64,000 bases of DNA from an uncultured bacterium (GTDB taxonomy: Bacteria > Fidelibacterota > UBA2242). Below the pieces are notes generated by a model that had not been told where the DNA came from, made no database searches, and saw nothing but the letters and a program-made list of their open reading frames with translations. Positions within the stretch are counted from its first letter, which is position 1, and each line of letters starts with the position of its first letter. Location: the NCBI GenBank assembly GCA_964588795.1, contig CAZPQN010000010.1:1148-65147 (forward strand), in the 5' to 3' direction. The position numbers and the translations under genes are program-made. Positions 7,396 through 29,665 of this stretch are shown here, piece after piece.

Positions 7396-8022
7396 TTAAG
7401 AGATTTGTTTGTTGGCAACGGATGGCGTGGCGGTGCGGTGCGTATTGTCGGCGGGACGCAGGTCAGTTCGATTACACTGACTCATGACGTCGGCGAAATC
7501 ATGCTCGGGCAGGGTCAATAAACAGTTTACAGCTGATTGAATGACCGCGGTGACCAGCGGTAGTTCTTCCTGGCGAAAAGCGCTGAGCACGAAATCTTCG
7601 GAGGGTACGCCGGGAGTCTGCGGGCCGATGCCCAGCCGCAGACGCGGTACGGCGGCGCCTCCCAAATATTCAATCACCGATTGCATACCGCGATGTCCGC
7701 CGGCAGAGCCGCCCGTCCTTAGACGCAGTTTCCCCAGTGGCAAATCAAGGTCATCATAGACGATCAACATTTCCGATGGTTGAACAGACAATTTCTGCCT
7801 CAGCGCCCGAGCCGCCAAACCGCTTTGGTTCATATAGGTTTTATTCTTGGCCAGCCAGAGCGCCTGGTGTTGATCCCGGACGATCTGCACAGGTTTCCGG
7901 GCCGGTGGAAAAGTCAGGGCCTGGTGCTGGAGATAGGCATCCACGACCAGATGGCCGATGTTGTGCCGGTGATTACGGTAAGCTGTTCCGGGATTACCCA
8001 AGCCGAGAATGACCTTTATCAT
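7396..8022 (-). CDS. pth: Peptidyl-tRNA hydrolase
   Basis: 'GLGNPGTAYRNHRHNIGH' Pth signature. Confidence 0.9.
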   Translation of the reverse strand: MIKVILGLGNPGTAYRNHRHNIGHLVVDAYLQHQALTFPPARKPVQIVRDQHQALWLAKNKTYMNQSGLAARALRQKLSVQPSEMLIVYDDLDLPLGKLRLRTGGSAGGHRGMQSVIEYLGGAAVPRLRLGIGPQTPGVPSEDFVLSAFRQEELPLVTAVIQSAVNCLLTLPEHDFADVMSQCNRTDLRPADNTHRTATPSVANKQIS

Positions 8023-14524: not shown

Positions 14525-15892
14525 ATGTTCAAATTAAAAACCCTGGTCTTGCTTGGCGGAAGTGTATTGTTGTTGACGCAGGGCTGGGCGGCGGAACCCG
14601 CACCGCAGGTGACGGTCTACAATAAAGACCTGGCGGTCATTCGCCAGTACCGGACGTGGAGCGTGCCCCGCGGGGTTTCGGAACTCAATCTGGAAGGCGT
14701 TCCTTCCCGGGTTGATCCGACCAGTGTCAAACTGACTTTCCCCAAAGCCAGCGGCAAGGTCAAATTGTTAGAGCAGAACTATCTCTATGATTTAGTGAGC
14801 TCCCAGAAGATTTTCGAAAAGTATTTGGGACAAACGGTTATCTTCCGCTTTGAAAACGGCGGGGAGGTCCGTGGCAAACTGCTTAATGTTGACCAAGACG
14901 CTGTGGTGATCGAAACCACAACCGGCGGCCTGCAAATCGCGGCGGTCAGAACTATCCTGAATTATGATTTTCCCGCACTGCCGCAGGGATTGATCATCAG
15001 GCCGACCCTGAAGTGGCAGGTCGAGGCCGCCAGTACGGGTGCCGTGGAAGCCGAAATCGTTTTTCTGACCGGTGGCATGCAATGGCATGCGGAATATATC
15101 CTTGCCCTGAGTCGTAACGAAACCGACTTCGGCCTGAACTCGTGGGTTTCCCTGGAAAATAATTCCGGCGCTACTTATGAAAATGCAAAGGTCAGGGTCA
15201 TTGCCGGCGATGTTCATCGCGTGACGCGACCAGCCATTGCCCGCGATGTAGAAACCATGGAATATGCGGTCAGCGCCAAGGGTGCCTTTCAGGAACGAGA
15301 ACTGATGGATTACCACCTTTATGAGCTCCAGCGTCCCGTCACCCTCCGTGATCGGGAAATCAAGCAAATTGCCCTCTACGATGAACTGCGTGGCAAAGCC
15401 CGCAAGCTCTACGTGTTGGACAATTATCGTCAGGCAGAGAGCGAAAAACCATTGACAGTTTACCTGAAAATCGAAAACTCTGTCGCCAACGGTTTGGGTT
15501 TACCCTTGCCACTGGGCACCGTGCGGATTTTTCAGGAGGACGCCGATAATTCTCTGCAACTGGTCGGTGAGGATCGCCTGGAACACACCAGCGTCAATGA
15601 TACCCTCTGGCTGCAAACCGGCAATGCTTTCGATGTCAAGGGCAAAAGAATCGTCAGGGATTTGAGTCGTATCAAACCTAACAGCGAGCAGGCGACGATT
15701 GAGGTCGAGGTACGCAACGCTCGTAAGGTGCCGGTGGAGCTCGAAATCCGCGAGTACCTGGACGGTGACTGGTTTCTGAAATCGGCCTCGCATCCATCTA
15801 TACGGCGCAGTAACCGCCTGTTAGTATTTCCCCTGAGGCTGGAAGCCGGTCAGAAAACTGTGGTCACCTACACCTATCAGCGCAGTTGGTAA
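14525..15892 (+). CDS. DUF4140/DUF4139-family protein, exported
   Basis: Signal peptide after the internal Met (RBS CAGGAGGA upstream of 14525), then the DUF4140-like 'VTVYNKDLAVIRQYR' N-terminal domain. The longer ORF from 14453 would overlap valS. Confidence 0.55.
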   Translation: MFKLKTLVLLGGSVLLLTQGWAAEPAPQVTVYNKDLAVIRQYRTWSVPRGVSELNLEGVPSRVDPTSVKLTFPKASGKVKLLEQNYLYDLVSSQKIFEKYLGQTVIFRFENGGEVRGKLLNVDQDAVVIETTTGGLQIAAVRTILNYDFPALPQGLIIRPTLKWQVEAASTGAVEAEIVFLTGGMQWHAEYILALSRNETDFGLNSWVSLENNSGATYENAKVRVIAGDVHRVTRPAIARDVETMEYAVSAKGAFQERELMDYHLYELQRPVTLRDREIKQIALYDELRGKARKLYVLDNYRQAESEKPLTVYLKIENSVANGLGLPLPLGTVRIFQEDADNSLQLVGEDRLEHTSVNDTLWLQTGNAFDVKGKRIVRDLSRIKPNSEQATIEVEVRNARKVPVELEIREYLDGDWFLKSASHPSIRRSNRLLVFPLRLEAGQKTVVTYTYQRSW

Positions 15893-18009
15893 ACGCCAGG
15901 TCCTCCCAGCAAAGTATGACCATGCTCCAGCCCGATATGGCCGTCGCTTATGTAAAGGGCGTCGGGCCGAAACGTGCCGCAGCTCTTGACCAGCTTGAGA
16001 TCCACACTTTTCGCGACCTGCTTTATCATTTTCCGCGGCGCTACCTCGACCGTAGTACCATCACTTCCATCAGCCAGCTCCAGGTGGGCAGTGCAGCTAC
16101 TATCGTCGGTAAAGTAGTATCTCAGAACGCCGTTCGTTCTTTTCGCCGGGCATTCTTTCAGGTTGATATTCAAGATGCTTCCGGACGTCTGGCCTGTGTC
16201 TGGTTCAATGGCATCAATTATATTAAAAACGTTTTCCATCTTGGCGAAACCGTGGCCATGAGCGGCAAGGTCGAATATTTCAAAGGTCTGCGTTTTATTC
16301 ATCCCGATTATGATCGGCTGGAAAGTGGCGAATGGGATTTGACCCTGCATACCGCCCGGATCATCGCGCTTTACCCGTCCTCCGCCGAGCTGAAACAAGT
16401 GGGATTGGACAGCCGGGGATTCCGGCGCTTGTTGCGCCCGGTGTTCGAAAAGTGCACCTGGAGCCTGCCGGAAGTTTTACCGCCGGCGATCCTGAGTGAA
16501 TTGCGGCTGGCCGGGATTGATTCAGCCGTCCGTCAAATCCATTTTCCGGACAGTGCCAATGCACTCGAGCAGGCGCAGACCCGCTTCAAGTTTGAAGAAT
16601 TATTTTTTCTGCAACTGATGCTGGGGGTCCGGCGGGCAGGAGTCAAGACTGTGCTGAAACCGCATCAATACCGGGGTACTGGTGCACTGCTTAAAACCAT
16701 TTATACTAAATTGCCTTTCCAGCTCACCGCGGCCCAGAAACGGGCAGTGCACGAAATCTGGGATGACCTGAAAGCCCCGACGGTTATGAATCGACTTCTG
16801 CACGGTGACGTGGGTTCGGGCAAAACGGTCGTGGCGCTTCTCAGCGCGAGCATTGCCATCAGCAATGGCTTGCAGGTTGCCCTGATGGCTCCGACAGAAA
16901 TCCTGGCCGAACAGCATTTTCGGGTTCTGCGACAGTTGGGCGAACCCGCTGGCATCCGGGTACGCCTGTTGATTGGAGGCCAGAATAAGCGTGAACGGCA
17001 GGCAGTCCTGACGGAAATCGCTGAGGGGCAGGCGGAGCTGATCGTCGGTACGCATGCCCTGATCGAAGAAAATGTGCAGTTCCGCAACTTAGCCCTCGTA
17101 ATTATCGATGAACAGCATCGCTTCGGCGTACTCCAGCGCAGTCAGCTGATCGCCAAAGGCTGGCAACCAGATGTATTGATCATGACCGCCACACCCATAC
17201 CGCGTACGCTGAGTATGACGATTTACGGTGACATGGATATCTCGGTGCTCGACGAACTGCCCGCCCGCAAAGGGCGACTCCATACGCGCATCATCAACGA
17301 GGATCAGCTGGGCAAAGCCTACGCTTTCATCGCCCAGCAGGTGACTAAAGGCCATCAGGCCTACATCGTCTATCCGCTGATTGACGAATCGGCCAAGCTC
17401 GATCTCCAGGCCGCGATTCAGGGTTTTGAATACCTGCAGACCAGCGTATTTCCCCAGTTCAGGTTAGCCCTGTTGCATGGCGGCATGAAAACCACCGAAA
17501 AGGAAGCGGTCATGCAGGCTTTCAACCAGGGAACCGTCCACATTCTGGTGAGTACAACCGTCGTGGAAGTCGGTGTTGATAATCCCAATGCAGTCATCAT
17601 GCTAATCGAAAATGCCGAACGCTTCGGCCTGACCCAACTGCACCAGTTGCGCGGACGGGTAGGACGGGGCACGCAGGACGGCCTTTGTATCCTTGTGGAA
17701 CGGAAGCGCAGTGACTTGGCCCGGCAACGCCTGGAGGTCATTTCATCGACGGTCAATGGCTTTGAAATCTCGGAGTCCGACCTTAAATTACGCGGCCCTG
17801 GCGAGTTCTACGGAACCCGTCAGCATGGCTTTCCCAGGTTAAAACTGGCTGATTTGACAACCGATTTGGAATTGCTGAAACTGGCACGCCGCTCAGCGCA
17901 TGATCTCTTGAAAAACGATCCGCATCTGCGCAAACCGGAACATCAGCCTACCCGTCAGTTCCTTTTGGACAACTATCGCAAGTATATGGAATTCGCCAAC
18001 GTATTATAG
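15886..18009 (+). CDS. recG: ATP-dependent DNA helicase RecG
   Basis: N-terminal wedge/OB domain, Walker A (GDVGSGKT), DEQH box (IIDEQHRFG) and 'TATPIPRTL'. The true start may be an internal Met (15916-15937). Ends with TAG. Confidence 0.9.
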   Translation: MVNARSSQQSMTMLQPDMAVAYVKGVGPKRAAALDQLEIHTFRDLLYHFPRRYLDRSTITSISQLQVGSAATIVGKVVSQNAVRSFRRAFFQVDIQDASGRLACVWFNGINYIKNVFHLGETVAMSGKVEYFKGLRFIHPDYDRLESGEWDLTLHTARIIALYPSSAELKQVGLDSRGFRRLLRPVFEKCTWSLPEVLPPAILSELRLAGIDSAVRQIHFPDSANALEQAQTRFKFEELFFLQLMLGVRRAGVKTVLKPHQYRGTGALLKTIYTKLPFQLTAAQKRAVHEIWDDLKAPTVMNRLLHGDVGSGKTVVALLSASIAISNGLQVALMAPTEILAEQHFRVLRQLGEPAGIRVRLLIGGQNKRERQAVLTEIAEGQAELIVGTHALIEENVQFRNLALVIIDEQHRFGVLQRSQLIAKGWQPDVLIMTATPIPRTLSMTIYGDMDISVLDELPARKGRLHTRIINEDQLGKAYAFIAQQVTKGHQAYIVYPLIDESAKLDLQAAIQGFEYLQTSVFPQFRLALLHGGMKTTEKEAVMQAFNQGTVHILVSTTVVEVGVDNPNAVIMLIENAERFGLTQLHQLRGRVGRGTQDGLCILVERKRSDLARQRLEVISSTVNGFEISESDLKLRGPGEFYGTRQHGFPRLKLADLTTDLELLKLARRSAHDLLKNDPHLRKPEHQPTRQFLLDNYRKYMEFANVL

Positions 18010-18017
18010 AGAAATCA

Positions 18018-18353
18018 ATGGCTAACCAACCTGATCGCCCAAAAGTTTTATTTGTCTCGCTGGTGCAATCATTTATCACCAACACCTGGATTCATCTCGG
18101 CAAGGTCAAGCATCCCATGACCCAGAAAATTGCTGTGAATCTGGCCGAAGCCGCCAATTCCATTGATTTCCTGGAGATGATCAAACAAAAAACCAACGGC
18201 AATTTGGATGCGGACGAAAACCGCCTGTTGGAGCATGCCATCACCGAATTGAAGATGAATTTTCTGGAGGAAAAAGTCAAGTCCGAAAAACCATCCTCCA
18301 CTCCGGAAAAACCCGATACGTCCACCGCACCCCCCCAAGCCTCATCCGATTAA
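18018..18353 (+). CDS. DUF1844-family small protein
   Basis: About 110 aa with the conserved '...IDFLEMIKQKTNGNLDADENRLLEHAITELKMNF' core. Confidence 0.5.
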   Translation: MANQPDRPKVLFVSLVQSFITNTWIHLGKVKHPMTQKIAVNLAEAANSIDFLEMIKQKTNGNLDADENRLLEHAITELKMNFLEEKVKSEKPSSTPEKPDTSTAPPQASSD

Positions 18354-18371
18354 CTGTAAACAAGGAATTTT

Positions 18372-21227
18372 ATGCACTGGTTAAAAAACAACAAGACCGA
18401 AGCTAGCTTAGCCCTCCTGACGCTGATCCTGAGTTTCCTGGTATACCTCGCGACAATGGCCCCGACTGTGCCGTTTTGGGACTGCGGGGAATTCATCGCC
18501 ACTTCTTATACCCTGGGTGTGCCCCACCCGCCAGGCAGTCCGTTGTACCTATTAATCGGACGCCTGTTTTCCATGCTACCGACCAATCCGAGCATTGCCT
18601 TCCGCGTCAATCTGATCTCACCCATCGTGAGCGCCCTGGCGGTCATGTTCCTGTTTCTGATAATCGGACAATTGCTGAAGAACTGGTTTGATAGCCAGAA
18701 CACGCTCGCCAAAATTGCCCGTTACGGCGGAGCTTTTATCGGGGCCATGACTTTTGCATTTACGGACAGTCACTGGTTCAATGCGGTGGAGGCGGAAGTA
18801 TATGCCTTTTCAACCTTCCTGACAGCTATCGTAGTCTGGCTGATTTTGGTTTGGGAAGAAAAGTCGGATCAACCCGGACACGAACGCTATCTGTTGCTGA
18901 TCGTCTATATCATCGGTCTGGCAATCGGCATTCATCTGCTTAATCTGCTGGCGATCTTTTTCATCGCGCTGGTGATTTATTTCAAGAAATACACCGTCAC
19001 CTCGGTGGGCTGGTTGATTGTAGATATTATCGTCGGTGTCGCCGCGATTGGTTTGATTTTCTTCTTTTTCCTGCAATTTAAAGTGCCTTTCGAACTGCAG
19101 GCGATACTAACCCTGGCCATTTTTCTGCTGGTTTATTTCCAGATCTATAAAAAAGCCGCCAAACCCCGCTTTCAGGAACATGCCCGCAATGTCCTCATGG
19201 CGATGGCGGCTTCCGGCGCCTACCTCGTCATCAACAGCGGAATTATCCGCGGTCTGCCGACGATTGCCGATACGTTCGGAATTGGGGCGGTGGCCGTGAC
19301 CATCATTGCCCTCTTAGCGGTGACCGCCTGGTTTATTTTAAAAAAGTACAACCTGTTGGCGCTCATCGCCATGGCGCTGGTTCTGATTGTCGTAGGCTAT
19401 TCTTCCTATACCATGATTTTTGTGCGGAGCAACCAGGATCCCACGATTGACGAAAACGATCCGGAGACCACTCACCAGGCGGTTGCCTACTTGGAACGCG
19501 AGCAGTATGGTCAACGCTCATTCACCGATATATTCGACCGCGCCAAATGGAAACCCGAAGCCGCCTATAAGTACAAAGGGGCCTGGGATTATTTCTGGAA
19601 GTACCAGATCAATTATATGTATATCCGTTACTTCAACTGGCAGTTCATCGGTCGCAAGGGCGACAGTGTTAATCCCTTTCAATTTATTCTGCCCCTGCCG
19701 TTCATAATCGGGCTGTACGGCATGGTGACTCACTTCGGGCGGGACAAACATAAGGCGTTAGGCGTTTTAGCCCTTTTCCTGTTTACCGGCCTGATGATTG
19801 TCCTGTATCTCAATCAGGACGATCCCCAGCCGCGTGAGCGAGACTATTCCTATGTCGGCTCCTTTTTTGCCTTTGCGATCTGGATCGGGATAGGGGTGGC
19901 GACGCTGATCAGCTACTTCAGCCAGCTGAAGAGTGTCCGCTGGCGCAAACCTTTGACCTGGCTCGCAACGATAGCGCTGGTGATTATTCTGCCAGTCAAT
20001 CTGTTGCAGGCCAATTACCGGGAGCATGACCGCACCGGCAATTTTGTCGCCTGGGACTATTCCTATAATCTCCTGCAATCCTGCGCCCAGGATGGCATCC
20101 TGTTCACCAACGGAGACAATGACACTTTTCCGCTCTGGTACCTGCAGGAAGTCGAAAAAATCCGCCAGGATGTCAAAGTTGTCAACCTCAGCCTGCTCAA
20201 CACCCCCTGGTATATCAAGCAACTCCGGAACAGCGAACCGAAAATCGCGATCGGCGACTTGTCCGATCAGATGATTGACCAGATCAATTTGGTGCGCTGG
20301 GAAAAGCGCAAAGTCAAAATCAGTCCTCCACCGGACAGCAAATTACCTCCAATGGAATGGGAGATGGAACCCACCTGGCGCTACGGACAGATGGGCGCCC
20401 TGCGTGTGCAGGACCTCATGATCATGCAGATCCTCGAGGCCAATCGCTGGAAACGTCCGGTCTATTTTGCCGTCACCGTCTCGCCGGAGAACAAACTCGG
20501 CATGGATGAGTACCTGCAGATGGAAGGGCTGACCTTCAGAATCCATCCGCAAAAGGTCCGGCGCATCAATCCCCAGAAAATCGCCGACAACATCAACAAT
20601 GTCTATCTTTTCCGCAATCTGAACAATCCTGACGTCTATTACGATGACAATATCATCCGCCTCATCGGCAATTACCGCTCAGCCTTCCTGCAACTGGCGG
20701 TTGACCGGTTGTACAGCAACGACCGCGCCGGCATGCTGGCCGCGCTCGATTCGATGTCCGCGAAAATGCCGGAAACGATTTTTCCGATTGGTAATGATGA
20801 CGTCTATCTGCAGGTCGGTCTGTTATATTTTGAAGGTGGGCGGCAAGGCTCCGCCGAACAGCCCTCGGACCTGGAAATCCGACTCGAAAGCTTGGTCAGT
20901 CAGGCGAATCAGAGCGTGAAAAACAAATTGAAGTACGCTTCCATCTATGCCCAGCACCTCAAACGATTTGACAAAGCGCAGTCCATCCTCGAGGCCCTGA
21001 ACCTGCAAAAGCCACTCGACCCCGAAATTGCTGGCTATCTGGTCAAGATCTATGAAGAGACCAAGCAATATGACAAAGCGCTGGGAATTCTGGACGCGTG
21101 GTTGGCGGTGCACCCCGATGACCAGAGTGCGACCGCGATGCGCGACCGGTACCGCACCCAACTTACACCCGCCCAGAAGGCACGGATGGATTCGCTTAGC
21201 CGGGTGCAATTTAAACCAGCGTCATAA
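18372..21227 (+). CDS. DUF2723 (TMEM260-like, GT-C fold) polytopic membrane protein with a C-terminal TPR-like domain; putative protein glycosyltransferase
   Basis: N-terminal 'FWDCGEFIATSYTLGVPHPPGSPLY' DUF2723 motif, at least 10 TM helices, and a soluble helical-repeat C-terminal region. Confidence 0.65.
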   Translation: MHWLKNNKTEASLALLTLILSFLVYLATMAPTVPFWDCGEFIATSYTLGVPHPPGSPLYLLIGRLFSMLPTNPSIAFRVNLISPIVSALAVMFLFLIIGQLLKNWFDSQNTLAKIARYGGAFIGAMTFAFTDSHWFNAVEAEVYAFSTFLTAIVVWLILVWEEKSDQPGHERYLLLIVYIIGLAIGIHLLNLLAIFFIALVIYFKKYTVTSVGWLIVDIIVGVAAIGLIFFFFLQFKVPFELQAILTLAIFLLVYFQIYKKAAKPRFQEHARNVLMAMAASGAYLVINSGIIRGLPTIADTFGIGAVAVTIIALLAVTAWFILKKYNLLALIAMALVLIVVGYSSYTMIFVRSNQDPTIDENDPETTHQAVAYLEREQYGQRSFTDIFDRAKWKPEAAYKYKGAWDYFWKYQINYMYIRYFNWQFIGRKGDSVNPFQFILPLPFIIGLYGMVTHFGRDKHKALGVLALFLFTGLMIVLYLNQDDPQPRERDYSYVGSFFAFAIWIGIGVATLISYFSQLKSVRWRKPLTWLATIALVIILPVNLLQANYREHDRTGNFVAWDYSYNLLQSCAQDGILFTNGDNDTFPLWYLQEVEKIRQDVKVVNLSLLNTPWYIKQLRNSEPKIAIGDLSDQMIDQINLVRWEKRKVKISPPPDSKLPPMEWEMEPTWRYGQMGALRVQDLMIMQILEANRWKRPVYFAVTVSPENKLGMDEYLQMEGLTFRIHPQKVRRINPQKIADNINNVYLFRNLNNPDVYYDDNIIRLIGNYRSAFLQLAVDRLYSNDRAGMLAALDSMSAKMPETIFPIGNDDVYLQVGLLYFEGGRQGSAEQPSDLEIRLESLVSQANQSVKNKLKYASIYAQHLKRFDKAQSILEALNLQKPLDPEIAGYLVKIYEETKQYDKALGILDAWLAVHPDDQSATAMRDRYRTQLTPAQKARMDSLSRVQFKPAS

Positions 21228-21236
21228 TTTATCTCC

Positions 21237-22286
21237 ATGACGGAAGCTCCGGCAGTTTCGGTCGTAATTCCCCATTTTAACGGGACGGCGATTCTGCGTG
21301 ACTGCCTGGCGTCGCTGTACGGCTCGACTCGCTTAAATTTAGAAGTCCTGCTGGTTGATAACGCTTCGACCGACGACAGCCTGGCCATGGTGCGTCGGGA
21401 ATTTCCGCAGGTCACGATTTTAAGTCTGACCCAAAACCGTGGCTTTGCCGGTGGGTGCAATGTCGGGATTCGTGCCGCCCGCGCGCCCCTGGTGCTCATC
21501 CTGAATAACGATACGATTCATCAGAACGGATGGCTGGAACTTTTGGTCGCGAAACTGCAATCAAGGGTGGAAATTGCCGCAGTTCAGCCCAAAATCCGGT
21601 CATATCAGACTCGTGCCGCTTTCGATTATTCCGGGGCGGCTGGCGGTGAAATGGACCTTTTTGCCTACCCCTTTGCCCGCGGACGCATCTTCGAGGCGCT
21701 CGAAACCGACACCGGCCAGTATGACACCTGGCCGGAGCAAATTTTCTGGGCTTCAGGCACGGCCTTTTTGGCGCGTCGTGAATTCCTGTTGGCGGTGGGG
21801 CTGTTTGATGAAACATTTTTCGCCCACATGGAAGAGATTGACCTGCAGTGGCGCTTACAGTTGATGGGTTATGAAATTGTGGTGGAGCCGAGAGCTGTCA
21901 TCTGGCATCGCAGTGGCTATACCCTGGGTGCCGAAGCGCCGCTGAAAAAATATTTGAATCATCGCAACAGCTGGTTGATGTTTCTGACCAATTATCGTCC
22001 CCTGCTGACCCTCTATTTGACACCCCTGCGTCTGGGACTGGACTATTTGGCGGTGTGTTTTTCGCTTTTACGTCGGGACTGGGGCCGCGCGGCGGGGATT
22101 TTACGCGCGCAGCTCTGGTTGGTGGGTCACGGGCCAACAATTCTCCGGCGACGAAGACAGGTCAAAGCATTGCGCCGGTGTAGCGACCGCCAGGTCAGCC
22201 GGCGTTTATTTCATGGCAGTGTGGCGCTGAGTTTTTATTTATTGAAGCGCCGTCACTGTAACGACCTGTTTTCAAACGCGGCGTAA
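21237..22286 (+). CDS. Family 2 glycosyltransferase
   Basis: 'VSVVIPHFNG...LLVDNASTDDS' GT2 (GT-A) signature and a DxD region. Lies 9 nt downstream of the DUF2723 gene. Confidence 0.8.
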   Translation: MTEAPAVSVVIPHFNGTAILRDCLASLYGSTRLNLEVLLVDNASTDDSLAMVRREFPQVTILSLTQNRGFAGGCNVGIRAARAPLVLILNNDTIHQNGWLELLVAKLQSRVEIAAVQPKIRSYQTRAAFDYSGAAGGEMDLFAYPFARGRIFEALETDTGQYDTWPEQIFWASGTAFLARREFLLAVGLFDETFFAHMEEIDLQWRLQLMGYEIVVEPRAVIWHRSGYTLGAEAPLKKYLNHRNSWLMFLTNYRPLLTLYLTPLRLGLDYLAVCFSLLRRDWGRAAGILRAQLWLVGHGPTILRRRRQVKALRRCSDRQVSRRLFHGSVALSFYLLKRRHCNDLFSNAA

Positions 22287-22288
22287 AA

Positions 22289-23146
22289 TTAAGGCGTCGC
22301 CGGGCGTTCGCTCAGGATTTTGTCGTAGACAGCTTTGTTGTCGGGATCGAGTGCCAGCAGTTTGCGTTGCTGAGCCGGTGAGCCGTGTTCCTTGATGACG
22401 AGCATAAAATCGCGAGCGTGGGCATCGAGAAAAACGCGCAGGTTGCGTTCACGGCTGTTTTCGCTAAAGGTTGCCTCGATGCAGCCCAGGGCTTTATCGA
22501 GCACCGGGGGAACTTCAGCCGTTTTTTTCTGATCGGATAAATCCACCGCCAGCCAGAAGTAATATTTGGTCATTCGGTAATTGCGCTGGCGCAGAATCTC
22601 GTCCTGAACCTGGAGGCGTTCTTTCCAGCCTTGGGGACGCTCCGACATCTGGGCGCGGGTGGCAATGTCGCGCGCTTTTTCATAAGCATTATTGCCGCCC
22701 AAAAGTTCATAGGTGTCCAGTTCGCCGGCAATCAGCATCCAGGCATAGTAATCGAGCACACTGGTCAGCGAATGGCTCATGTCTGAATGTACAACCGGAT
22801 CGTTGGGATTATAGACAAATTTGAAGGACTTTTCGAAAAAGCGCTGGTCGCCGGATTCATTGGTGATAAACATCTGAGCGGTGAAAACCCGCTCTGCTCC
22901 GGCAGTGCCGACGCTTTGGGGGAAGATGCTGATCTTAATCGGAATCTGCATGCCGTAACTGTTTTCAATCCACTGAAAGGACTCAAAATAGGCCGGGAGC
23001 AGACGCTCCAGCACTTTCAAATCCGCACGCTCCTTCTCCGGCATGCGCTCCACGGAAATTTCGGCGTTGACTTCGACGAACTGGGCGAAAGAGATGATCG
23101 GATAGCATACAATCAACAGCCAGTGCTTAAACCCGCTGCTATTCAT
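22289..23146 (-). CDS. DUF4835-like exported hypothetical protein
   Basis: Signal peptide. 'FKFVYNPNDP...VLDYYAWMLIAGELDTY...LRVFLDAHARDF' resembles the Bacteroidota DUF4835 family. Confidence 0.4.
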   Translation of the reverse strand: MNSSGFKHWLLIVCYPIISFAQFVEVNAEISVERMPEKERADLKVLERLLPAYFESFQWIENSYGMQIPIKISIFPQSVGTAGAERVFTAQMFITNESGDQRFFEKSFKFVYNPNDPVVHSDMSHSLTSVLDYYAWMLIAGELDTYELLGGNNAYEKARDIATRAQMSERPQGWKERLQVQDEILRQRNYRMTKYYFWLAVDLSDQKKTAEVPPVLDKALGCIEATFSENSRERNLRVFLDAHARDFMLVIKEHGSPAQQRKLLALDPDNKAVYDKILSERPATP

Positions 23147-23328
23147 AAACTACACTCCTCAAAAAGGCCGTTTAACAGGTAAAAGCTAAAATGCGCCTTT
23201 GTCATATTTGCCTGGAATATAATAATTCTGCTGCAAACTTGAAAACGGCATCATCGACTCCATTTTGGCAATTGATTAAATGGTGTTTTCTTGCTACATT
23301 TTGCCGTTTCCATAAACGTGGAGTGGCC

Positions 23329-24786
23329 ATGACCAATACGAATCAGTTACGCACATGGATTGCCCTAACCGTCCTGTTGTTAGGGGGAATGACCAGCTTC
23401 GGCGCGGGTCAGAAACGCCTGACCAAGGAACCACGTCCGGCCTGGATTGATAATCCCCAGCCCGGTTACTATATCGGTATCTCACATAAGTTCCCGGAGG
23501 AAGCCGATGCCCGGACGGATGCGCTCAACAACGCCAAGCGTCAGATCATTGAATCCCTGGGCGGGATAGTCGAAAGCGAACTGATTGACTCGATTATTGA
23601 GTCCGGTGCAACGGTAAAAACCCAGGATGCCTTTACCAACTCCCGGGTGAAGGTGGTGGCCAAAAATATCGTGGCGGTCAAGCCGGAAAGGACTTTCGTC
23701 GAGGAATATCAGGAAAACTCCGGGCGACGCGCACAGAAAAGCTATCTGGCTTTCGTAATGGTCTATTTTGACGAGGCGGCGCACCGGGAGTTTTTGCAAC
23801 AGCTGGTCGCGGAAACGGTAATGCTTGGCAATCAGCAATTTCTTGCGGCGCAAACGCAAGCAAACGCCGGGCAAATTTTTTTGGCGATTGATCAACTGCG
23901 TCAGGTCGCAAAGAATATCCAACCCCTGACCGAAATTACCGGATTGCCGGCGCCGGAAATGCGTGATATCCAAGCTTTTCAGGAGCAGGTGCGGGCGGGC
24001 ATTGAAACTATCCGTACCGGTCTCCGGATTGAGATTCGCGGAGAGCGACAAGTCACCAAATGGGGCGAGGGTCTGCCCGAGCCACTGGTGGTTATGGTGT
24101 CCTGCCAGATTGGCGAGAAACGGGTTGAGCTACCCGGACTCGCGGTTGATTTTAATGTCACTACTGGTCAGGCTATTCTGACCCCGCAGGTTAGCACCAA
24201 TGCTCAGGGAGAAGCGGTTTGTCAGGTGACTGAAGTGCGGACCAGCCAGCCACTGAAAATCGCCGCGCGGGTGCATTTTCCGGAAGGTTATGACGTATCA
24301 TCCAATAGCGCAATCTTCAATCTTTTGCCGGATAACCGGGTTGTTGTGAAAGTGACGGAGTTAAATTTGGGAAAGGTTGTGGCACTGTCTAACCTAGAAA
24401 ATGCCCTGTCCCAGGCTCTGACTGCCGCGGGCTTTACGATTTTGGAAAATAATCCCTTCGCACAGTTTGACCGTCAGCGGTTGGAAAACCTGTCACCGGC
24501 AGAGATTGGGCAGCTGGCGAAAAACAGCGGCGCCGATCTGATTTTACTGGGCAGCATCGTTGCCGACCAGCCGAGTAAAATCCAGGAAGATTTTTACTTT
24601 ATGCGGGCTAAGGGCACGCTGAAAATCTTCAATGCCCGGCGCCAGACGGTGATTGACAACTTTTTGATCGAGGATAAAAGTGCCGGCAATTCGCCGGAAA
24701 ACGCAGGCGCCAAAGCCATTGCCAAGGTAAGCGATTTGCTGGTGAAAAAAATGCGGGATTCACTGCTGGGTGGGTCGGAGCCCTGA
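23329..24786 (+). CDS. Exported protein with an N-terminal LPP20-like domain (tentative), first gene of the caspase operon
   Basis: Signal peptide from the internal Met at 23329. 'GYYIGISHKFPEEADARTDALNNAKRQIIESLGG' resembles LPP20/FlgP-type lipoprotein domains. Confidence 0.45.
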   Translation: MTNTNQLRTWIALTVLLLGGMTSFGAGQKRLTKEPRPAWIDNPQPGYYIGISHKFPEEADARTDALNNAKRQIIESLGGIVESELIDSIIESGATVKTQDAFTNSRVKVVAKNIVAVKPERTFVEEYQENSGRRAQKSYLAFVMVYFDEAAHREFLQQLVAETVMLGNQQFLAAQTQANAGQIFLAIDQLRQVAKNIQPLTEITGLPAPEMRDIQAFQEQVRAGIETIRTGLRIEIRGERQVTKWGEGLPEPLVVMVSCQIGEKRVELPGLAVDFNVTTGQAILTPQVSTNAQGEAVCQVTEVRTSQPLKIAARVHFPEGYDVSSNSAIFNLLPDNRVVVKVTELNLGKVVALSNLENALSQALTAAGFTILENNPFAQFDRQRLENLSPAEIGQLAKNSGADLILLGSIVADQPSKIQEDFYFMRAKGTLKIFNARRQTVIDNFLIEDKSAGNSPENAGAKAIAKVSDLLVKKMRDSLLGGSEP

Positions 24787-24965: not shown

Positions 24966-25580
24966 ATGAAAAACAGATGGCTGATATTATCGATCGGGGT
25001 GCTGACTCTATTGAGCGGATGCTCGTCGCTAACTTTTATCCCCACCCCGCCGGCGGCGACGCTGGCAACCACTGATTACGTAAATAAGCAAATGACGACA
25101 GTAGCGGAAAGAACAACGCAGGAGCTGCTCGAAAAGACTCGTAGTATTCTGGATGAAGCATTGGCGACAGAACGCGCCCGGTTGGATGAATTAAAAAGTA
25201 CGATGGAGAGCCAGCAGAAAGATATCGCGTCCACTATGGAATTTATCAAACAGTCCAAACAGGAAATTGACCAGACGGTGACTACCATTCAGGATATTGT
25301 TGCCAAGGAGCGGAAGAAGGTTGACCTGTTTAAAAGAGAAGTTGCCGACAGTTTGGATAATCTTTGGAATGGCATAAATCAATTGCAGACGACTGACCAA
25401 AAATTGCAGGAAAATATCGCCTTGCTCGAAGCGAACATCAATAGGTTAGAGAAGGCTAACGAGCAACTGCGTCAGGATATCGCGCAGATCAATGTCCGCC
25501 TCGAGGGCATGCCCAAGGAGACGATGTTGGCCCTGCGCAAAGCCATCGAGAATTTTTATCAGCTCCAGTCGGGGAATTGA
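24966..25580 (+). CDS. Coiled-coil lipoprotein of unknown function
   Basis: Lipobox LLSGC, then about 150 aa of heptad-like Q/E/K-rich sequence. Its stop overlaps the start of the caspase gene. Confidence 0.55.
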   Translation: MKNRWLILSIGVLTLLSGCSSLTFIPTPPAATLATTDYVNKQMTTVAERTTQELLEKTRSILDEALATERARLDELKSTMESQQKDIASTMEFIKQSKQEIDQTVTTIQDIVAKERKKVDLFKREVADSLDNLWNGINQLQTTDQKLQENIALLEANINRLEKANEQLRQDIAQINVRLEGMPKETMLALRKAIENFYQLQSGN

Positions 25581-28500
25581 CTGATGCTGAGAGTGTGGAG
25601 GTTGGTATGAAGTGCCCAATTTTTTCCAAAAGTCGTTCGCGCCGGGGTCGGCTATCCCGGCTGATGGCGCTGGGTCTGCTTGTAGGTCTGATGCTCACAC
25701 TGCCGGTGCAGGGGCAGGAGGTTAGCTTTGAAACCGCCCAGACCAAACTCGCTCAACTGCTGGCCAGTCTGGGTAATTTGGATACTGAAATCCAGCAGGA
25801 AATCGAAAAGGCGCTGACCGCCGAGCTGGATCTCCGTCCCAAGGGCGAATTTGAGTCTACGGCCGAGTACGATGAACGACTTTGCCAAAATGAAACCCGG
25901 CGGCAGGAAATTGCGGCGCGCTACGAGGAACAAAAGACGGAACGCCGGGCAATATTGGACAAGGAACTGGAATTGCTGACCAGCAAAGCTTATCCCACGC
26001 CGATTCAACTGGAGCTGGGTTATTACCGGCCAGAGTTGGAGCGCTTTCCCTTTACCGTGCCCAAATACCAGAAAAAGGGCAGTTTGCTGATTCCCAAATC
26101 CATCGCCCAGCAGTTTAAGGAAGGCTTTGCCAATCTCAAACCCATTGGCTATTTTCAACTGTCACGCGACGGCGAAACCCGCCTCATCTACGTGGTGGTC
26201 GAGTTCAATGGTCAACCCTACACAGCCCGCACCGACCGGCGGATGCAGAGTATCAAGAATTTAGCGACCTTTAAAAACCATAGCCGCTCGGTCAATGCGG
26301 TGGTTTTTAATCCGGACGGAAGTTTACTGGCTACCGGCAGTGACGACAAGACGGTTAAAATCTGGGACGTGAAGAAGCAGACCCTGCTTTACAACCTGAC
26401 CGGGCATACCAAGTACGTTACGGCTTTGGCATTTCATCCCAGTGAACCGGTATTGGCCAGTGGCGGTTCGGATGGCTTGCTGATCATCTGGCAAATTGAC
26501 GGTCAGAAAATTTTGCAGAAGATCATGGTCCATCCGGAAGGCATCAAATCTCTGGCTTTCAGTCCCGACGGAAAGATCGTTGCCACCGCCGCGGCGGACT
26601 ACAAGATCTATCTCTATCAGGTAAGCGATGCGACCTGTTTGCAGACTTTGAGTGGACATACCGATGAAATCCACGCCCTGACCTTCAGCCCGGACAATCT
26701 CTGTTTGGTGAGCACCGGCTATGACCAGTCCATCCGCCTGTGGAGCGTGAAGGATGGCAGTAATATCAAAACCATTACCAAGGCGCATCCTTTATGGATT
26801 AATGCCATCGCCTATAGCCCGGATGGCGAACAAATTGCCAGTGCCGGTGATGATAAAATTGTCAAGATATGGAACGCCAAGGATCTTTCTCCGCAAAAAA
26901 CTTTCAGCGATCTGCCTGCCGGTGTCATCGCATTGGCGTTCAGCAATCCGGACGGTTTGACAATTGCTTGCGGGCTCGAAGACAACACGTTATTGTTCAA
27001 GCGGGTGGCCGATGGAACCACGCTGTTCAGCAACAAAGAACACAGTGGCACGGTGAAATCCGCCGCCTACGATGTGCAAGGGAAGCTCCTGGCGACTGCC
27101 AGCGAGGACCGCACGGTTAGGTTATGGGAAATCGTTTATGATGAAATGGCGGAGCTGGCGGGCGCCAGCGACGTGGTACGGACCATTGCCGGGGCGGCAA
27201 ACGGCCTGCCACCGAAACTGCGGGCTGAAATCAATTTCAGCGAACCCTCGGGCAACAACTTTCTGGATGCCAACGAAACCGGGCTCCTGAAAATCACCGT
27301 AATCAATAACGGGCAGGGGCCGGGTTTTGCCGTCTCGGCGGTACTGTCCGGTACTCAGAACCCGGAGCTGGATTATCCTCCGCGCACTTTGATCGGCGAT
27401 ATCAACCCCGGAGAGAGCAAGACCGTGGAAATTGCGCTTAAAGCGCGCTATAAAATGTCCGCCGATTCCATTGCCCTCAACTGTAACATCATCGAGGCCA
27501 ACGGTTTTAATCTCGATCCCATGCAGATCCAATTCGAGACTCGTCCCTATTTTGTCAACTTGGTCAATGCCGGCATCCAGGTCACTGACCAGAGCGGTAA
27601 CGGCATGATTGAGCCGGAGGAAATTGTCGAAGTAACGGTCAGGTTGCAGAATCAGGGTACCAGTGTAGCACGCGATGTACGCGCCGCTCTGCGACTGGGC
27701 GATAATGTCTTCTTTGTCGGCAAGGACACCAAAGAGCGGGTTCAGCAAACTCCGATCGGCGATTTGCCGGCGGGCGACTTTCGGGATTTGACGATCAAGG
27801 TCTACACCAACAACGTGGCGACGGCGGTTCCGGTTTTCCTGACGGTCTCGGAGTACTATCGGGAATGGGGCGTCGTCAACCTCCCGGTCGAGCTGAGTTT
27901 CAATCAGCGCTTAGCCACGATGCAGCAATTTGTGGTCAAGGGCAAGGAGGACGGCAGTAAGTATGTGACCGACGGATTCTCGATAGACGTGGAGCTGAAT
28001 ATTCCTGCCGGACAGGGCGTTAAAAATGATGCTGTCGCCCTGATCATTGCCAACCGCAAGTACCAGAACAGCGACATTCCGGAGGTTAGCTTCGCCCACC
28101 GCGATGGCGAATTTGTCAAACAATACCTGCTAAAAACTTTAGGTTTTCGGGAAGGCAATATCCTGGTCTACAATGACGCCACCCAGTCTCAATTCAAGAC
28201 CGCTCTCCAGAAATTGGCCAATACCGCCAAAGACACCGCCGAAATTTTCTTCTATTACGTCGGGCACGGGGCTCCTGATCCCGAGAGCAAACGTGGCTAT
28301 TTCGTACCTGTGGATTGCGACCCTAACTATGTCAGCGTGGGCGGCATCGCTCTGGATTACTTCTATGAACAACTCAATAATATCAAAACGGCGGCCACTA
28401 CCGTCATGATTGATGCCTGCTTCTCGGGCAGTAGCAACGAGGGCATGTTGATCAAGAACGTCAGTCCGGTCATGATCGAGATCGAAAAGGGGCACACGCT

Positions 28501-28774
28501 TTCCGATCATATCGTCGAATTCACTTCGTCCTCCGCGGATGAAGTCAGCTCCTGGTATCCCGAGAAAAAACACAGCTTGTACACCTATTACTTCCTGCGC
28601 GGCCTGCAGGGTGAAGCCGATGAAAACAAAGATCTGGTTTTGACGGTCGGCGAACTGGCAAAATATTTAGATAGTAAGGTGCCGTATGAAGCCCGGCGTC
28701 TGAACAACCGCCAGCAAACTCCCGGGGTAACACCCGACCGTGCGGACCGGGTACTTGTCAGATATGGTCAATAG
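25577..28774 (+). CDS. Exported multidomain protein: signal peptide, coiled coil, WD40 beta-propeller, 2x CARDB-like beta-sandwich, C-terminal caspase (peptidase C14)
   Basis: At least 7 WD40 repeats (e.g. 'GHT..VTALAFHP...LASGGSDG...IW'). Caspase block 'ALIIANRKYQN...FFYYVGHGAP...VMIDACFSGS' carries the His/Cys dyad. Ends with TAG. The start may be an internal Met (25607 or 25664). Confidence 0.8.
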   Translation: MTDAESVEVGMKCPIFSKSRSRRGRLSRLMALGLLVGLMLTLPVQGQEVSFETAQTKLAQLLASLGNLDTEIQQEIEKALTAELDLRPKGEFESTAEYDERLCQNETRRQEIAARYEEQKTERRAILDKELELLTSKAYPTPIQLELGYYRPELERFPFTVPKYQKKGSLLIPKSIAQQFKEGFANLKPIGYFQLSRDGETRLIYVVVEFNGQPYTARTDRRMQSIKNLATFKNHSRSVNAVVFNPDGSLLATGSDDKTVKIWDVKKQTLLYNLTGHTKYVTALAFHPSEPVLASGGSDGLLIIWQIDGQKILQKIMVHPEGIKSLAFSPDGKIVATAAADYKIYLYQVSDATCLQTLSGHTDEIHALTFSPDNLCLVSTGYDQSIRLWSVKDGSNIKTITKAHPLWINAIAYSPDGEQIASAGDDKIVKIWNAKDLSPQKTFSDLPAGVIALAFSNPDGLTIACGLEDNTLLFKRVADGTTLFSNKEHSGTVKSAAYDVQGKLLATASEDRTVRLWEIVYDEMAELAGASDVVRTIAGAANGLPPKLRAEINFSEPSGNNFLDANETGLLKITVINNGQGPGFAVSAVLSGTQNPELDYPPRTLIGDINPGESKTVEIALKARYKMSADSIALNCNIIEANGFNLDPMQIQFETRPYFVNLVNAGIQVTDQSGNGMIEPEEIVEVTVRLQNQGTSVARDVRAALRLGDNVFFVGKDTKERVQQTPIGDLPAGDFRDLTIKVYTNNVATAVPVFLTVSEYYREWGVVNLPVELSFNQRLATMQQFVVKGKEDGSKYVTDGFSIDVELNIPAGQGVKNDAVALIIANRKYQNSDIPEVSFAHRDGEFVKQYLLKTLGFREGNILVYNDATQSQFKTALQKLANTAKDTAEIFFYYVGHGAPDPESKRGYFVPVDCDPNYVSVGGIALDYFYEQLNNIKTAATTVMIDACFSGSSNEGMLIKNVSPVMIEIEKGHTLSDHIVEFTSSSADEVSSWYPEKKHSLYTYYFLRGLQGEADENKDLVLTVGELAKYLDSKVPYEARRLNNRQQTPGVTPDRADRVLVRYGQ

Positions 28775-28777
28775 CGC

Positions 28778-29665
28778 ATGGCAATGAGCGGCCAGGGCCA
28801 ATTCAAGTACGGCCTTAGGATAATTATTTGCCTGCTTGGTCTGCTTACCGCGGGTTTATTGGCCCAAAAGTCCCAGGCAATCTGGGTAGAAGTTGACACT
28901 GTCAGGGTTTTCGACAGCAATACGACACCAGCGGAAGCCCGCCACAAGACCCTGACCCTGGCGCGTGAATGTGCGATTAAAAAAGCTATTCCCGAGGAGG
29001 TGCTCACCAGTTCGGTGTTTTCGGATCTGCGCGCCGAGTCTGGTCAGCAGGCTCAGGAACAGACCGCAATCAATATTTTCGCCATTTCCACGCAGGCAGG
29101 GGTAATCACCGAGGAAAAGATCCTGATCGCCAAGCCGGAAATTCTGGAGGATCTGATCAGGTACCGGGTCCGCCTGCAAGCGCAGGTGGCACCGATCATT
29201 GGTCAGCGCAATCCGGCCCTCAAATTAGACCTGAAAATCAATAATAATGTTTTTAAAAGCGGCGACCGCTTGGTGATTACGGCAACGAGCACCCAGGAAG
29301 GCTATCTCTATCTTTTCAATTTTTTAGCCGACAATTCGGTACTGATGATGTTTCCCAACCATATTTCAATGGATAATTCCGTCAAGGCCCGTCAGCCGCT
29401 GACCATTCCCACTCTGGCGGAACAGAAACAGGGGGTGGTCTACAAGGTGCAGGCTGATCCTAAACGTACCGTCACGGCGGAAGCGATTTTCGGCGTATTT
29501 TGTACCACGCCGATTGCCGAGTTTGACCGCTTTCAAGCCCTGCAAAAAGGGCACACTATTTTTAGTGCCGGTGACGAAAGTTTTACGCGCTTCCAGCGCG
29601 GATTGGCCGAGGTGCCACTCAACCAGCGTTGCGAAACCGCCCTGCCGATTCAGATTTTCAAATGA
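28778..29665 (+). CDS. DUF4384-domain exported protein (caspase-associated)
   Basis: Signal peptide. C-terminal 'GDRLVITATSTQEGYLYLFNFLADNSVLMMFPN' matches the DUF4384 core. Lies 4 nt after the caspase gene. Confidence 0.55.
   Translation: MAMSGQGQFKYGLRIIICLLGLLTAGLLAQKSQAIWVEVDTVRVFDSNTTPAEARHKTLTLARECAIKKAIPEEVLTSSVFSDLRAESGQQAQEQTAINIFAISTQAGVITEEKILIAKPEILEDLIRYRVRLQAQVAPIIGQRNPALKLDLKINNNVFKSGDRLVITATSTQEGYLYLFNFLADNSVLMMFPNHISMDNSVKARQPLTIPTLAEQKQGVVYKVQADPKRTVTAEAIFGVFCTTPIAEFDRFQALQKGHTIFSAGDESFTRFQRGLAEVPLNQRCETALPIQIFK

Follow-up and report, generated by a model that had tools for sequence, protein, structure and literature searches.

A predicted exported caspase-fold protein with a WD40 propeller in an uncultured Fidelibacterota bacterium, and the widespread family to which it belongs

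The window analysed here is a 64 kb stretch of DNA (64,000 nucleotides) from an uncultured bacterium (Fidelibacterota; UBA2242; GenBank assembly GCA_964588795.1, contig CAZPQN010000010.1), and the subject of this study is a gene on its + strand for a large protein ending in a caspase-fold peptidase domain, together with the genes on either side. The caspase gene occupies an uninterrupted open reading frame (ORF) at 25577–28774, which encodes 1065 amino acids (aa) when counted from the first TTG (25577), as all residue numbers of this protein are below. The first-pass annotation of this DNA had taken these limits for the gene. The frame is indeed unbroken, but the true start is likely the ATG at 25607, giving 1055 aa (probable coding sequence 25607–28774); this ATG is preceded by GGAGG, 7 nucleotides (nt) upstream, it is also the start in orthologues and in the genes called on three metagenome contigs, and a database protein (P0001) that is 100% identical to the caspase protein is 1055 aa long. 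Directly upstream lies the gene for a coiled-coil lipoprotein of 204 aa with the lipobox LLSGC/SS (24966–25580, + strand), its stop codon 26 nt ahead of the caspase ATG, and downstream, beginning 3 nt beyond the caspase stop, that for a predicted exported DUF4384 protein of 295 aa (28778–29665, + strand; PF14326, E 1.5e-11). Promoter and terminator sites were no commoner in a scan than in shuffled controls, and such a scan is uninformative for an organism of this kind. We consider it somewhat more probable than not that the caspase protein is a Sec-exported, catalytically competent C14 recognition-plus-protease module at the cell envelope, with the DUF4384 protein as its probable partner or substrate. 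It is a member of a widespread, uncharacterised family whose fixed core runs from a signal peptide through a pair of CARDB-type β-sandwiches to a caspase domain at the C-terminus.

The layout first proposed for the protein, namely a signal peptide, WD40 repeats, two sandwich domains and a C-terminal caspase domain, was borne out by sequence inspection, by Pfam and by an AlphaFold2 model. A Sec-type signal peptide (MKCPIFSKSRSRRGRLSRLMALGLLVGLMLTLPVQG/QE; 25607–25714), recognised by sequence inspection and by comparison with orthologue N-termini, is followed by a region that we call the N-module (aa 47–225; 25715–26251) and by a seven-blade WD40 β-propeller (aa 226–522; 26252–27142). The propeller is recognised by Pfam PF00400 at 211.7 bits (cutoff 27) in 6 stretches over aa ~225–540, and whole-propeller families match too, among them the THOC3-type propeller over 253 of its 272 profile positions. 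At least seven blades had been suggested; the propeller is real, and blade alignment over aa 226–522 sets the count at exactly seven, of ~42 aa each. The AlphaFold2 model, which covers aa 540–1065, was built on 103 homologues and has a mean predicted local distance difference test score (pLDDT) of 89.6, contains two eight-stranded β-sandwiches, a disordered linker at ~783–801 and then an α/β domain at ~820–1063. The two sandwiches correspond to the two CARDB-like domains of the first-pass annotation. Sandwich 1 (aa 548–656; 27218–27544), a CARDB-like domain of immunoglobulin (Ig) type in a block with pLDDT >90, has no Pfam match of its own; it is homologous to sandwich 2 by hhalign (probability 98.5%, E 2.9e-15), takes the same fold in the model, and gives Ig-like Foldseek matches to integrin, RbmA and transglutaminase. 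Sandwich 2 (aa 662–770; 27560–27886) is matched in Pfam by CARDB (PF07705; 25.3 bits, cutoff 22.7) and by DUF11 (25.9 bits, cutoff 24.6). The linker predicted to be disordered (aa 783–801, model residues 244–262, pLDDT <50; 27923–27979) connects the sandwiches to the Peptidase_C14 caspase-fold domain (aa 820–1063; 28034–28765), an assignment to which Pfam, alignment with MALT1, the model and Foldseek all contribute.

The N-module had been described as about 180 aa of coiled coil. Its first half does look helical, but Pro, Gly and aromatic residues abound in the second, so the region is not simply a coiled coil; it is a conserved module that carries the invariant motif KGEFE(S/T)TxEYxxR. Profile searches of Pfam and of the PDB with this module returned no match. 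Among 1.84 billion proteins it is present in just 66 representatives, about a quarter of them with WD40 repeats and about a quarter with a C14 domain. Many proteins devoid of both WD40 repeats and a caspase domain contain it as well, in some cases at an internal position (P0270–P0332).

Peptidase_C14 (PF00656) covers aa 820–1052 with an E value of 7.9e-19 and 68.7 bits for the full protein, or 73.2 bits when the region is scanned alone, against a cutoff of 21.4. The closest solved relatives by sequence are the paracaspase MALT1 and plant metacaspase 9. With phmmer, YYVGHG is paired with YYAGHG of MALT1 (H897 with H415) and IDAC with LDMC (C948 with C464), which marks His897 (YYVGHG; 28265–28267) and Cys948 (IDACFSG; 28418–28420) as the catalytic dyad, while D843 (28103–28105) and D946 (28412–28414) align with the S1-pocket acids D365 and D462. 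All 103 of 103 aligned family members keep H897, C948, G896, G898, D913, D946 and the F-S-G after the Cys, and 99 of 103 keep D843. The third S1 residue, equivalent to E500 of MALT1, could not be aligned, and D988, acidic in 92 of 103 members, is a candidate for it. Foldseek ranks MALT1 (3v4o_A) first, with an E value of 1e-12 and a TM score of 0.72 on the target, followed by metacaspases and then caspases. In the model, with a pLDDT of ~90 in this region, H897 lies within the first central strand (889–900) and C948 ends the second (940–948), an arrangement consistent with that of C14 enzymes. Given an intact, invariant dyad and a fold like that of caspases and paracaspases, the domain is likely to be an active protease, as had been supposed from the dyad motifs at the outset.

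The characterised C14 enzymes other than caspases all have an acidic pocket and a basic P1 preference (PMC5756287), and since D843 and D946 match the S1 acids of MALT1, cleavage after Arg or Lys is the expectation for this protein. A conserved basic residue, K960 (28454–28456), stands 12 residues past the catalytic Cys; the position is Lys or Arg in 95 of 103 family members and falls in a loop of lower model confidence. Twelve residues past the Cys is also the spacing of the intersubunit cleavage site of caspase-3, and K960 is for this reason a plausible site of autoprocessing. The activity of the orthocaspase MaOC1 requires autoprocessing (PMC5756287).

The protein might instead be a pseudo-protease, that is, a non-catalytic scaffold or adhesin that retains the caspase fold. 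Pseudo-orthocaspases do exist (PMC6426788); in P0049, a distant WD40 relative, Gly replaces the catalytic Cys (DAGFSG), and the ORFs of L037, L040, L055, L081 and L085 failed a D-x-C-F-S-G regular expression that was applied with no alignment check, which makes them possible pseudo-proteases. One caspase paralogue of locus L056, which bears WD40 repeats, likewise failed the regular expression for the Cys motif. The window protein and the 103 aligned members, however, show no variation at the His, the Cys, the neighbouring Gly residues or the S1 Asp, a pattern difficult to account for unless catalysis is under selection, and we regard loss of catalysis in this protein as very improbable.

The first-pass annotation mentioned the signal peptide but drew no consequence from it. 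Judged by its sequence, the caspase protein is extracytoplasmic and its partners are exported. Its N-terminus has the charged, hydrophobic and small-residue arrangement typical of a Sec signal peptide, and the N-termini of the orthologues are equivalent, ending in …A/Q. Under a hydrophobicity heuristic written for this analysis, a signal-peptide-like N-terminus was found in 73 of the 83 caspase ORFs in loci and in 89 of 98 sequences in a separate aligned family set, as well as in 41 of 43 DUF4384 neighbours, 33 of 39 neighbouring FGE-sulfatase proteins and 15 of 15 lipoproteins; three sets of cytoplasmic controls gave 1 of 9, 3 of 12 and 0 of 8 (0–25%). The predicted cleavage sites of caspase orthologues, DUF4384 proteins and FGE proteins very often precede Gln (…A/Q…). 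This pattern recalls the 'Q-rule' (N-terminal pyroglutamate) of exported proteins in Bacteroidetes. Next to the cassette, at 22289–23146 on the − strand, the window encodes a homologue of PorD/DUF4835 (Pfam DUF4835, E 3e-21; below the cutoff in NCBIfam), which fits an organism of the Fibrobacteres–Chlorobi–Bacteroidetes (FCB) group. The caspase protein has no C-terminal sorting domain (Por_Secre_tail/CTD) of the type IX secretion system (T9SS) in Pfam or NCBIfam, its C-terminus being the caspase domain itself, and the label of T9SS cargo was rejected for it. An export signal together with the lack of a T9SS sorting domain, in an organism that does encode PorD, makes residence in the periplasm or envelope likely.

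Orthocaspases are usually pictured as cytoplasmic (PMC7475262, PMC3501461), and the present protein could be read in the same way, as a cytoplasmic death or stress protease of orthocaspase type whose WD40 repeats sense an intracellular signal. Such a reading would account for the occurrence of a C14 domain together with WD40 repeats, which prokaryotic metacaspases carry more often than any other accessory domain (PMC3501461). Nevertheless, orthologues and the family at large retain the signal peptide, and the operon partners all carry an export signal or a lipobox; Pfam and NCBIfam detect in the protein neither a NACHT/STAND NTPase nor any other domain of cytoplasmic signalling; the NCBIfam model for the EACC1-associated caspase type scores below its cutoff (81 bits against 140); and the domain order is opposite to that of the orthocaspase-WD40 class. 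The label of cytoplasmic orthocaspase was rejected because of the signal peptide and the exported partners, and we hold this account to be highly unlikely.

If the protein is exported, it could also be a degradative exoprotease with which a marine bacterium scavenges nutrients, its sandwiches and propeller binding the substrate or a surface. β-Sandwich and CARDB domains are common in secreted hydrolases, and large trypsin-like proteins with Por_Secre_tail domains are encoded near the cassette in three related loci (L001, L003 and L004). The missing T9SS sorting domain in a PorD-encoding organism gives no indication of release past the outer membrane, however, and C14 enzymes are endopeptidases of narrow specificity (PMC5756287). 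Moreover, the pairing with DUF4384 and the diversified binding proteins encoded beside relatives, described below, suggest specific recognition rather than bulk proteolysis. Nutrient scavenging is therefore an unlikely role, if a less remote one than a cytoplasmic function.

The caspase-last order had been noted as the reverse of the usual one and as an unusual architecture. Published surveys of orthocaspases indeed give the opposite order, the cyanobacterial proteins carrying the p20 domain ahead of WD40 and other accessory domains (PMC7475262, PMC3501461). Within its own family, on the other hand, the arrangement is ordinary. A full-length search is swamped by WD40 proteins, and only 8 clusters are true full-length relatives (61–100% identity); the C-terminal 541 aa used as query recover 368 protein clusters, and with one genome scanned for each species, coding sites for the family number at least 581, across many phyla. 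The commonest form is a 'caspase family protein' of ~564 aa with 40–44% identity across 96% of the C-terminal query, and 102 family members have 39–54% identity over ~96% of a module of ~520 aa. The family was defined here by at least 40% identity over this whole module, a terminal caspase domain and an export signal at the N-terminus. Hosts are Marinimicrobia/Fidelibacterota (49–53% identity), Nitrospinota, Syntrophales, Cloacimonadota, Bacteroidota and others; among the matches listed, metagenome-assembled genomes of Candidatus Neomarinimicrobiota are the closest, and Flexithrix dorotheae DSM 6795 and Rapidithrix thailandica are cultured carriers. The caspase domain comes last, after the two sandwiches, in every family member, while the N-terminal addition may be absent, WD40, SH3, CarboxypepD_reg-like or unannotated. 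Thus, caspase-last is the norm of a large family and not a peculiarity of the window protein, and the conserved C-terminal module of ~520 aa is a fixed core to which WD40 is an optional addition.

The N-module is also present in relatives without WD40 (P0138, P0140, P0143, P0150, P0218 and others), and the architectures are consequently nested: a core of ~564 aa, a core with N-module of ~730–900 aa, and a form of ~1045–1140 aa in which a seven-blade propeller is added. As read from these sequences, the propeller appears to have been inserted between an older N-module and the sandwiches. WD40-bearing forms are also found in Latescibacterota, Gemmatimonadota, Hatepunaea and other lineages. One relative (P0141, 834 aa) has two caspase domains, the extra copy at aa 25–289 being 37% identical to that of the window protein.

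The genes on either side of the caspase gene are conserved with it. Exact protein look-up recovered the lipoprotein/caspase/DUF4384 trio in the orthologous loci L001–L005, L088 and L089, and the DUF4384 gene adjoins the caspase gene in all close orthologues whose contig extends far enough (L001–L005 and L088–L089). The trio is kept while the flanks change, from shikimate genes (L001, L003) to PorD and a family 2 glycosyltransferase (GT2) or urocanase (L004 and the window). All ORFs were clustered in 84 non-redundant sequences, made up of 83 fetched loci and the window, and the recurrent neighbours of the caspase gene were DUF4384 (42 loci), FGE-sulfatase (32, Pfam-confirmed), the lipoprotein (15, confined to the WD40 clade of Marinimicrobia), reverse transcriptase (RT; 9) and bAvd (5). 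Linkage was measured in a sample of 48 caspase genes flanked on each side by 3 kb or more of sequence, in which a DUF4384 gene lies within 10 kb of 35 (73%) and is adjacent on the same strand in 21.

The DUF4384 domain has been reported fused to protease domains and as an accessory domain fused to cyanobacterial orthocaspases, and some Csx30 proteins, the substrates of the caspase-like Craspase, end in DUF4384 (bioRxiv 10.1101/2022.08.17.504292). A homologue search with the DUF4384 protein itself recovered no fusions and nothing beyond 14 close orthologues, and the evidence for fusion is thus that of the literature. Its AlphaFold2 model (pLDDT 76) comprises an α/β domain, a conserved disordered loop at aa 74–95, a β-sandwich and, at the C-terminus, a small α/β unit. 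The loop offers a potential cleavage site, …SDLR/AESG…, which was dropped because its position is not conserved in the three most distant homologues. From the conserved adjacency, the fusions elsewhere and the Csx30 precedent, we infer that the DUF4384 protein is the best candidate for a partner or substrate of the caspase.

The lipoprotein, in which profile scans find only weak matches of coiled-coil type, bears on the function of the propeller. The propeller may be an anchor, in which case WD40 would dock on the lipoprotein and tether the protease to the membrane, and the N-module, the sandwiches or the DUF4384 protein would choose the substrate. An orthologue of the lipoprotein stands directly upstream of the caspase gene in 14 of 14 loci of the Marinimicrobia WD40 clade, with the Cys kept at the predicted lipidation site, and the relatives that have the N-module but no WD40 (L006, L014) lack it, so that lipoprotein and propeller appear together; in the window the two genes are only 26 nt apart. 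Against this, WD40 members in other phyla (L046, L056, L065, L067 and L071) have no such lipoprotein, which means that the propeller can function without it, and the co-occurrence is limited to a single clade, where shared ancestry could suffice. As a role for the propeller, anchoring by this clade-specific lipoprotein is as live an alternative as sensing; as an account of the whole protein, with substrate choice left to other parts, we consider it possible and clearly less probable than the recognition-plus-protease module.

Further genes lie around the trio. A gene at 23326–24786 (+ strand), 179 nt upstream of the lipoprotein gene, encodes an exported protein of ~485 aa that could be an accessory; it has only a weak Big_1 match, only the closest relatives (L004, L005, L009 and L010) have a counterpart at this place, and its membership of the cassette is doubtful. 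By eye, the N-termini of this protein and of the DUF4384 protein resemble small α/β domains of lipoprotein type. Further upstream, 15886–23146 of the window is syntenic with L004:1–5542 (RecG-like helicase, TMEM260-like/TPR protein, GT2 glycosyltransferase, PorD), as judged from ORF sizes and order without alignment. Downstream, the window has an MgsA-type AAA ATPase (Pfam) and then a protein that by eye is metallo-β-lactamase-fold-like, and L004 has urocanase. In unrelated relatives, toxin–antitoxin pairs of HEPN/HepT and nucleotidyltransferase (MNT-type) genes adjoin the caspase gene (the P0189 locus and L008:1911–2755).

In relatives, a further partner is common. A gene for an FGE-sulfatase protein, which has a lectin fold, lies within 10 kb of 22 of the 48 family genes in the linkage sample (46%). 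In L024, L028, L029, L030 and the P0189 locus, genes for DUF4384, FGE-sulfatase, Avd, RT and the caspase follow one another on one strand, and the loci examined for a diversity-generating retroelement (DGR) contain a repeat pair of 119–153 nt, of which one copy lies in the FGE gene, at its 3′ end, and its partner beside the RT. Repeat comparison located these pairs of template and variable repeats (TR/VR) at 2043–2171 and 2600–2728 of L024, 7183–7301 and 8811–8929 of L030, and 7727–7879 and 9492–9644 of L029. In the two pairs that were aligned (L030 and L024), the copies differ from each other almost exclusively where the one beside the RT has an adenine. That the FGE gene varies in this adenine-specific way at its 3′ end points to a working DGR with a lectin-fold target, and on these sequences the FGE protein appears to be a genuine DGR target in several relatives. 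In the Gemmatimonadota locus L056 (3008–10191), two caspase paralogues flank a DUF4384 gene, RT and Avd are present as well, and no FGE-sulfatase gene was detected.

The full 64 kb of the window contain no FGE, RT or Avd gene, and with no component in that span the label of a DGR system was rejected for it. An FGE neighbour was found for 1 of 15 WD40-bearing genes against 20 of 33 others (Fisher p 4.7e-4), in a test that ignores phylogeny and in which 10 of the 15 WD40 genes come from one clade. The rarity of FGE genes beside WD40 genes fits a fused propeller that replaces a recognition protein acting in trans, which would be a more specific version of the upstream sensor that the first-pass annotation raised as speculation. 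Strict complementarity, in which WD40 always replaces FGE, was rejected, since it holds only partly; L007, L020 and L021 carry both. Orthocaspase–CLec (C-type lectin) fusions are known as DGR targets in cyanobacteria (PMC7517822), DGR-diversified sensors beside peptidase effectors have already been described (PMC10907252), and so have metacaspase–FGE fusions (PMC3501461). What appears to distinguish the present loci from these published cases is that the proteins are separate, exported and joined by DUF4384.

The window protein is a member of peptidase family C14 (clan CD) by every testable criterion, and known systems resemble it only in part. With the orthocaspase- and metacaspase-WD40 proteins (the cyanobacterial metacaspase-NACHT-WD40 and MaOC1) it shares the C14 dyad, acidic S1 residues, WD40 repeats and possibly autoprocessing. 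Unlike them, it is caspase-last, has a signal peptide and exported partners, carries two CARDB sandwiches between propeller and protease, lacks an NTPase and has a fixed DUF4384 gene partner; the cyanobacterial-type architecture was therefore rejected on account of the terminal caspase, the N-terminal WD40 and the signal peptide. MALT1 has the same fold, the GHG and D-x-C motifs, the conserved S1 acids D365 and D462 and attached Ig-like domains. However, the two are only ~17% identical. MALT1 works in the eukaryotic cytoplasm as both scaffold and protease, possesses a death domain and has one Ig domain placed after the protease, whereas in the window protein, which is predicted to be exported, the Ig-like domains come before it. 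The DGR systems with CLec or FGE sensors (cyanobacterial orthocaspase–CLec and the conflict systems of Thiohalocapsa) likewise pair a variable binding protein with a caspase, as relatives of the window protein do, but in the published cases the two usually form one polypeptide, mostly in the cytoplasm or in association with STAND or MoxR, whereas in the relatives they are separate and predicted to be exported, and the window locus has a fused WD40 propeller instead of FGE, RT and Avd. Finally, Craspase (type III-E Cas7-11/Csx29) with Csx30 is a caspase-fold protease with a co-encoded substrate, some Csx30 proteins sharing DUF4384. In contrast to the window protein, Csx29 is CHAT-type, RNA-guided and cytoplasmic, and nothing related to CRISPR is present at the window locus; the parallel makes DUF4384 as substrate a lead. 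The NCBIfam model NF047832 ('caspase, EACC1-associated type') was rejected at 81 bits against its cutoff of 140, and a catalogued defence system was rejected for lack of a specific PADLOC match.

Taken as a recognition-plus-protease module, the caspase protein would act in the periplasm or at the cell envelope, where the N-module and the seven-blade propeller would bind another protein; in a recognition role this would be a target or ligand, in an anchoring role the coiled-coil lipoprotein encoded alongside. The two sandwiches would serve as a stalk. The caspase domain would cut after Arg or Lys, possibly following self-cleavage at Lys960, and the co-transcribed DUF4384 protein would be its likely substrate or regulator. 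In relatives without WD40, recognition would be supplied in trans by the neighbouring exported FGE-sulfatase protein, hypermutated by a DGR in several lineages, and the fused propeller would take its place here. The output could be surveillance or defence of the envelope, or the processing of surface proteins.

Several points count against this account. Activity, localisation and interactions of the caspase protein are all inferred; the placement of the dyad was taken from predicted strand positions, and the export calls come from the hydrophobicity heuristic. PADLOC recognises no defence system at the locus, its matches being a weak generic 'caspase' hit (E 1.6e-7), one driven by WD40 and coiled-coil noise for the lipoprotein. 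Some family genes have no DUF4384 neighbour (P0140/L006, L057, L065 and L067, for example), and the DUF4384 model gives Foldseek matches to generic Ig- or arrestin-like sandwiches, with no structural sign of a substrate. The association between WD40 and absence of FGE is not corrected for descent, and the WD40 forms of another clade (L007, L020 and L021) do have FGE genes nearby.

A more specific variant is that these proteins form an undescribed extracytoplasmic sensor-caspase system in which ligand binding would trigger a periplasmic caspase with Arg/Lys specificity, and the cleaved DUF4384 protein would set off an envelope response. Cleavage would then proceed much as Craspase cleaves Csx30, the ligand could be foreign or derived from the envelope, the recognition module would be a DGR-hypermutated lectin-fold protein in most lineages and the fused WD40 propeller here, and the response might be, for example, defence or programmed lysis. 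This variant seems to us a good deal less probable than the general form, and somewhat less so than anchoring, though more credible than an exoprotease.

Bacterial caspase homologues have mostly been discussed as cytoplasmic death or stress proteases, and to our knowledge almost none has a known substrate. The window alone offers a well-supported annotation of an unusual, not unique, protein, while the pattern across the family is a real lead: a phylum-spanning family of predicted exported caspases with a fixed architecture, a dedicated DUF4384 partner and, in many lineages, a DGR-hypermutated neighbour. The cultured carriers make the idea of a caspase–DUF4384 partnership genetically testable. 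If the partnership is real, it would provide a concrete pair of protease and substrate, and it would place caspase-type signalling or defence outside the cytoplasm.

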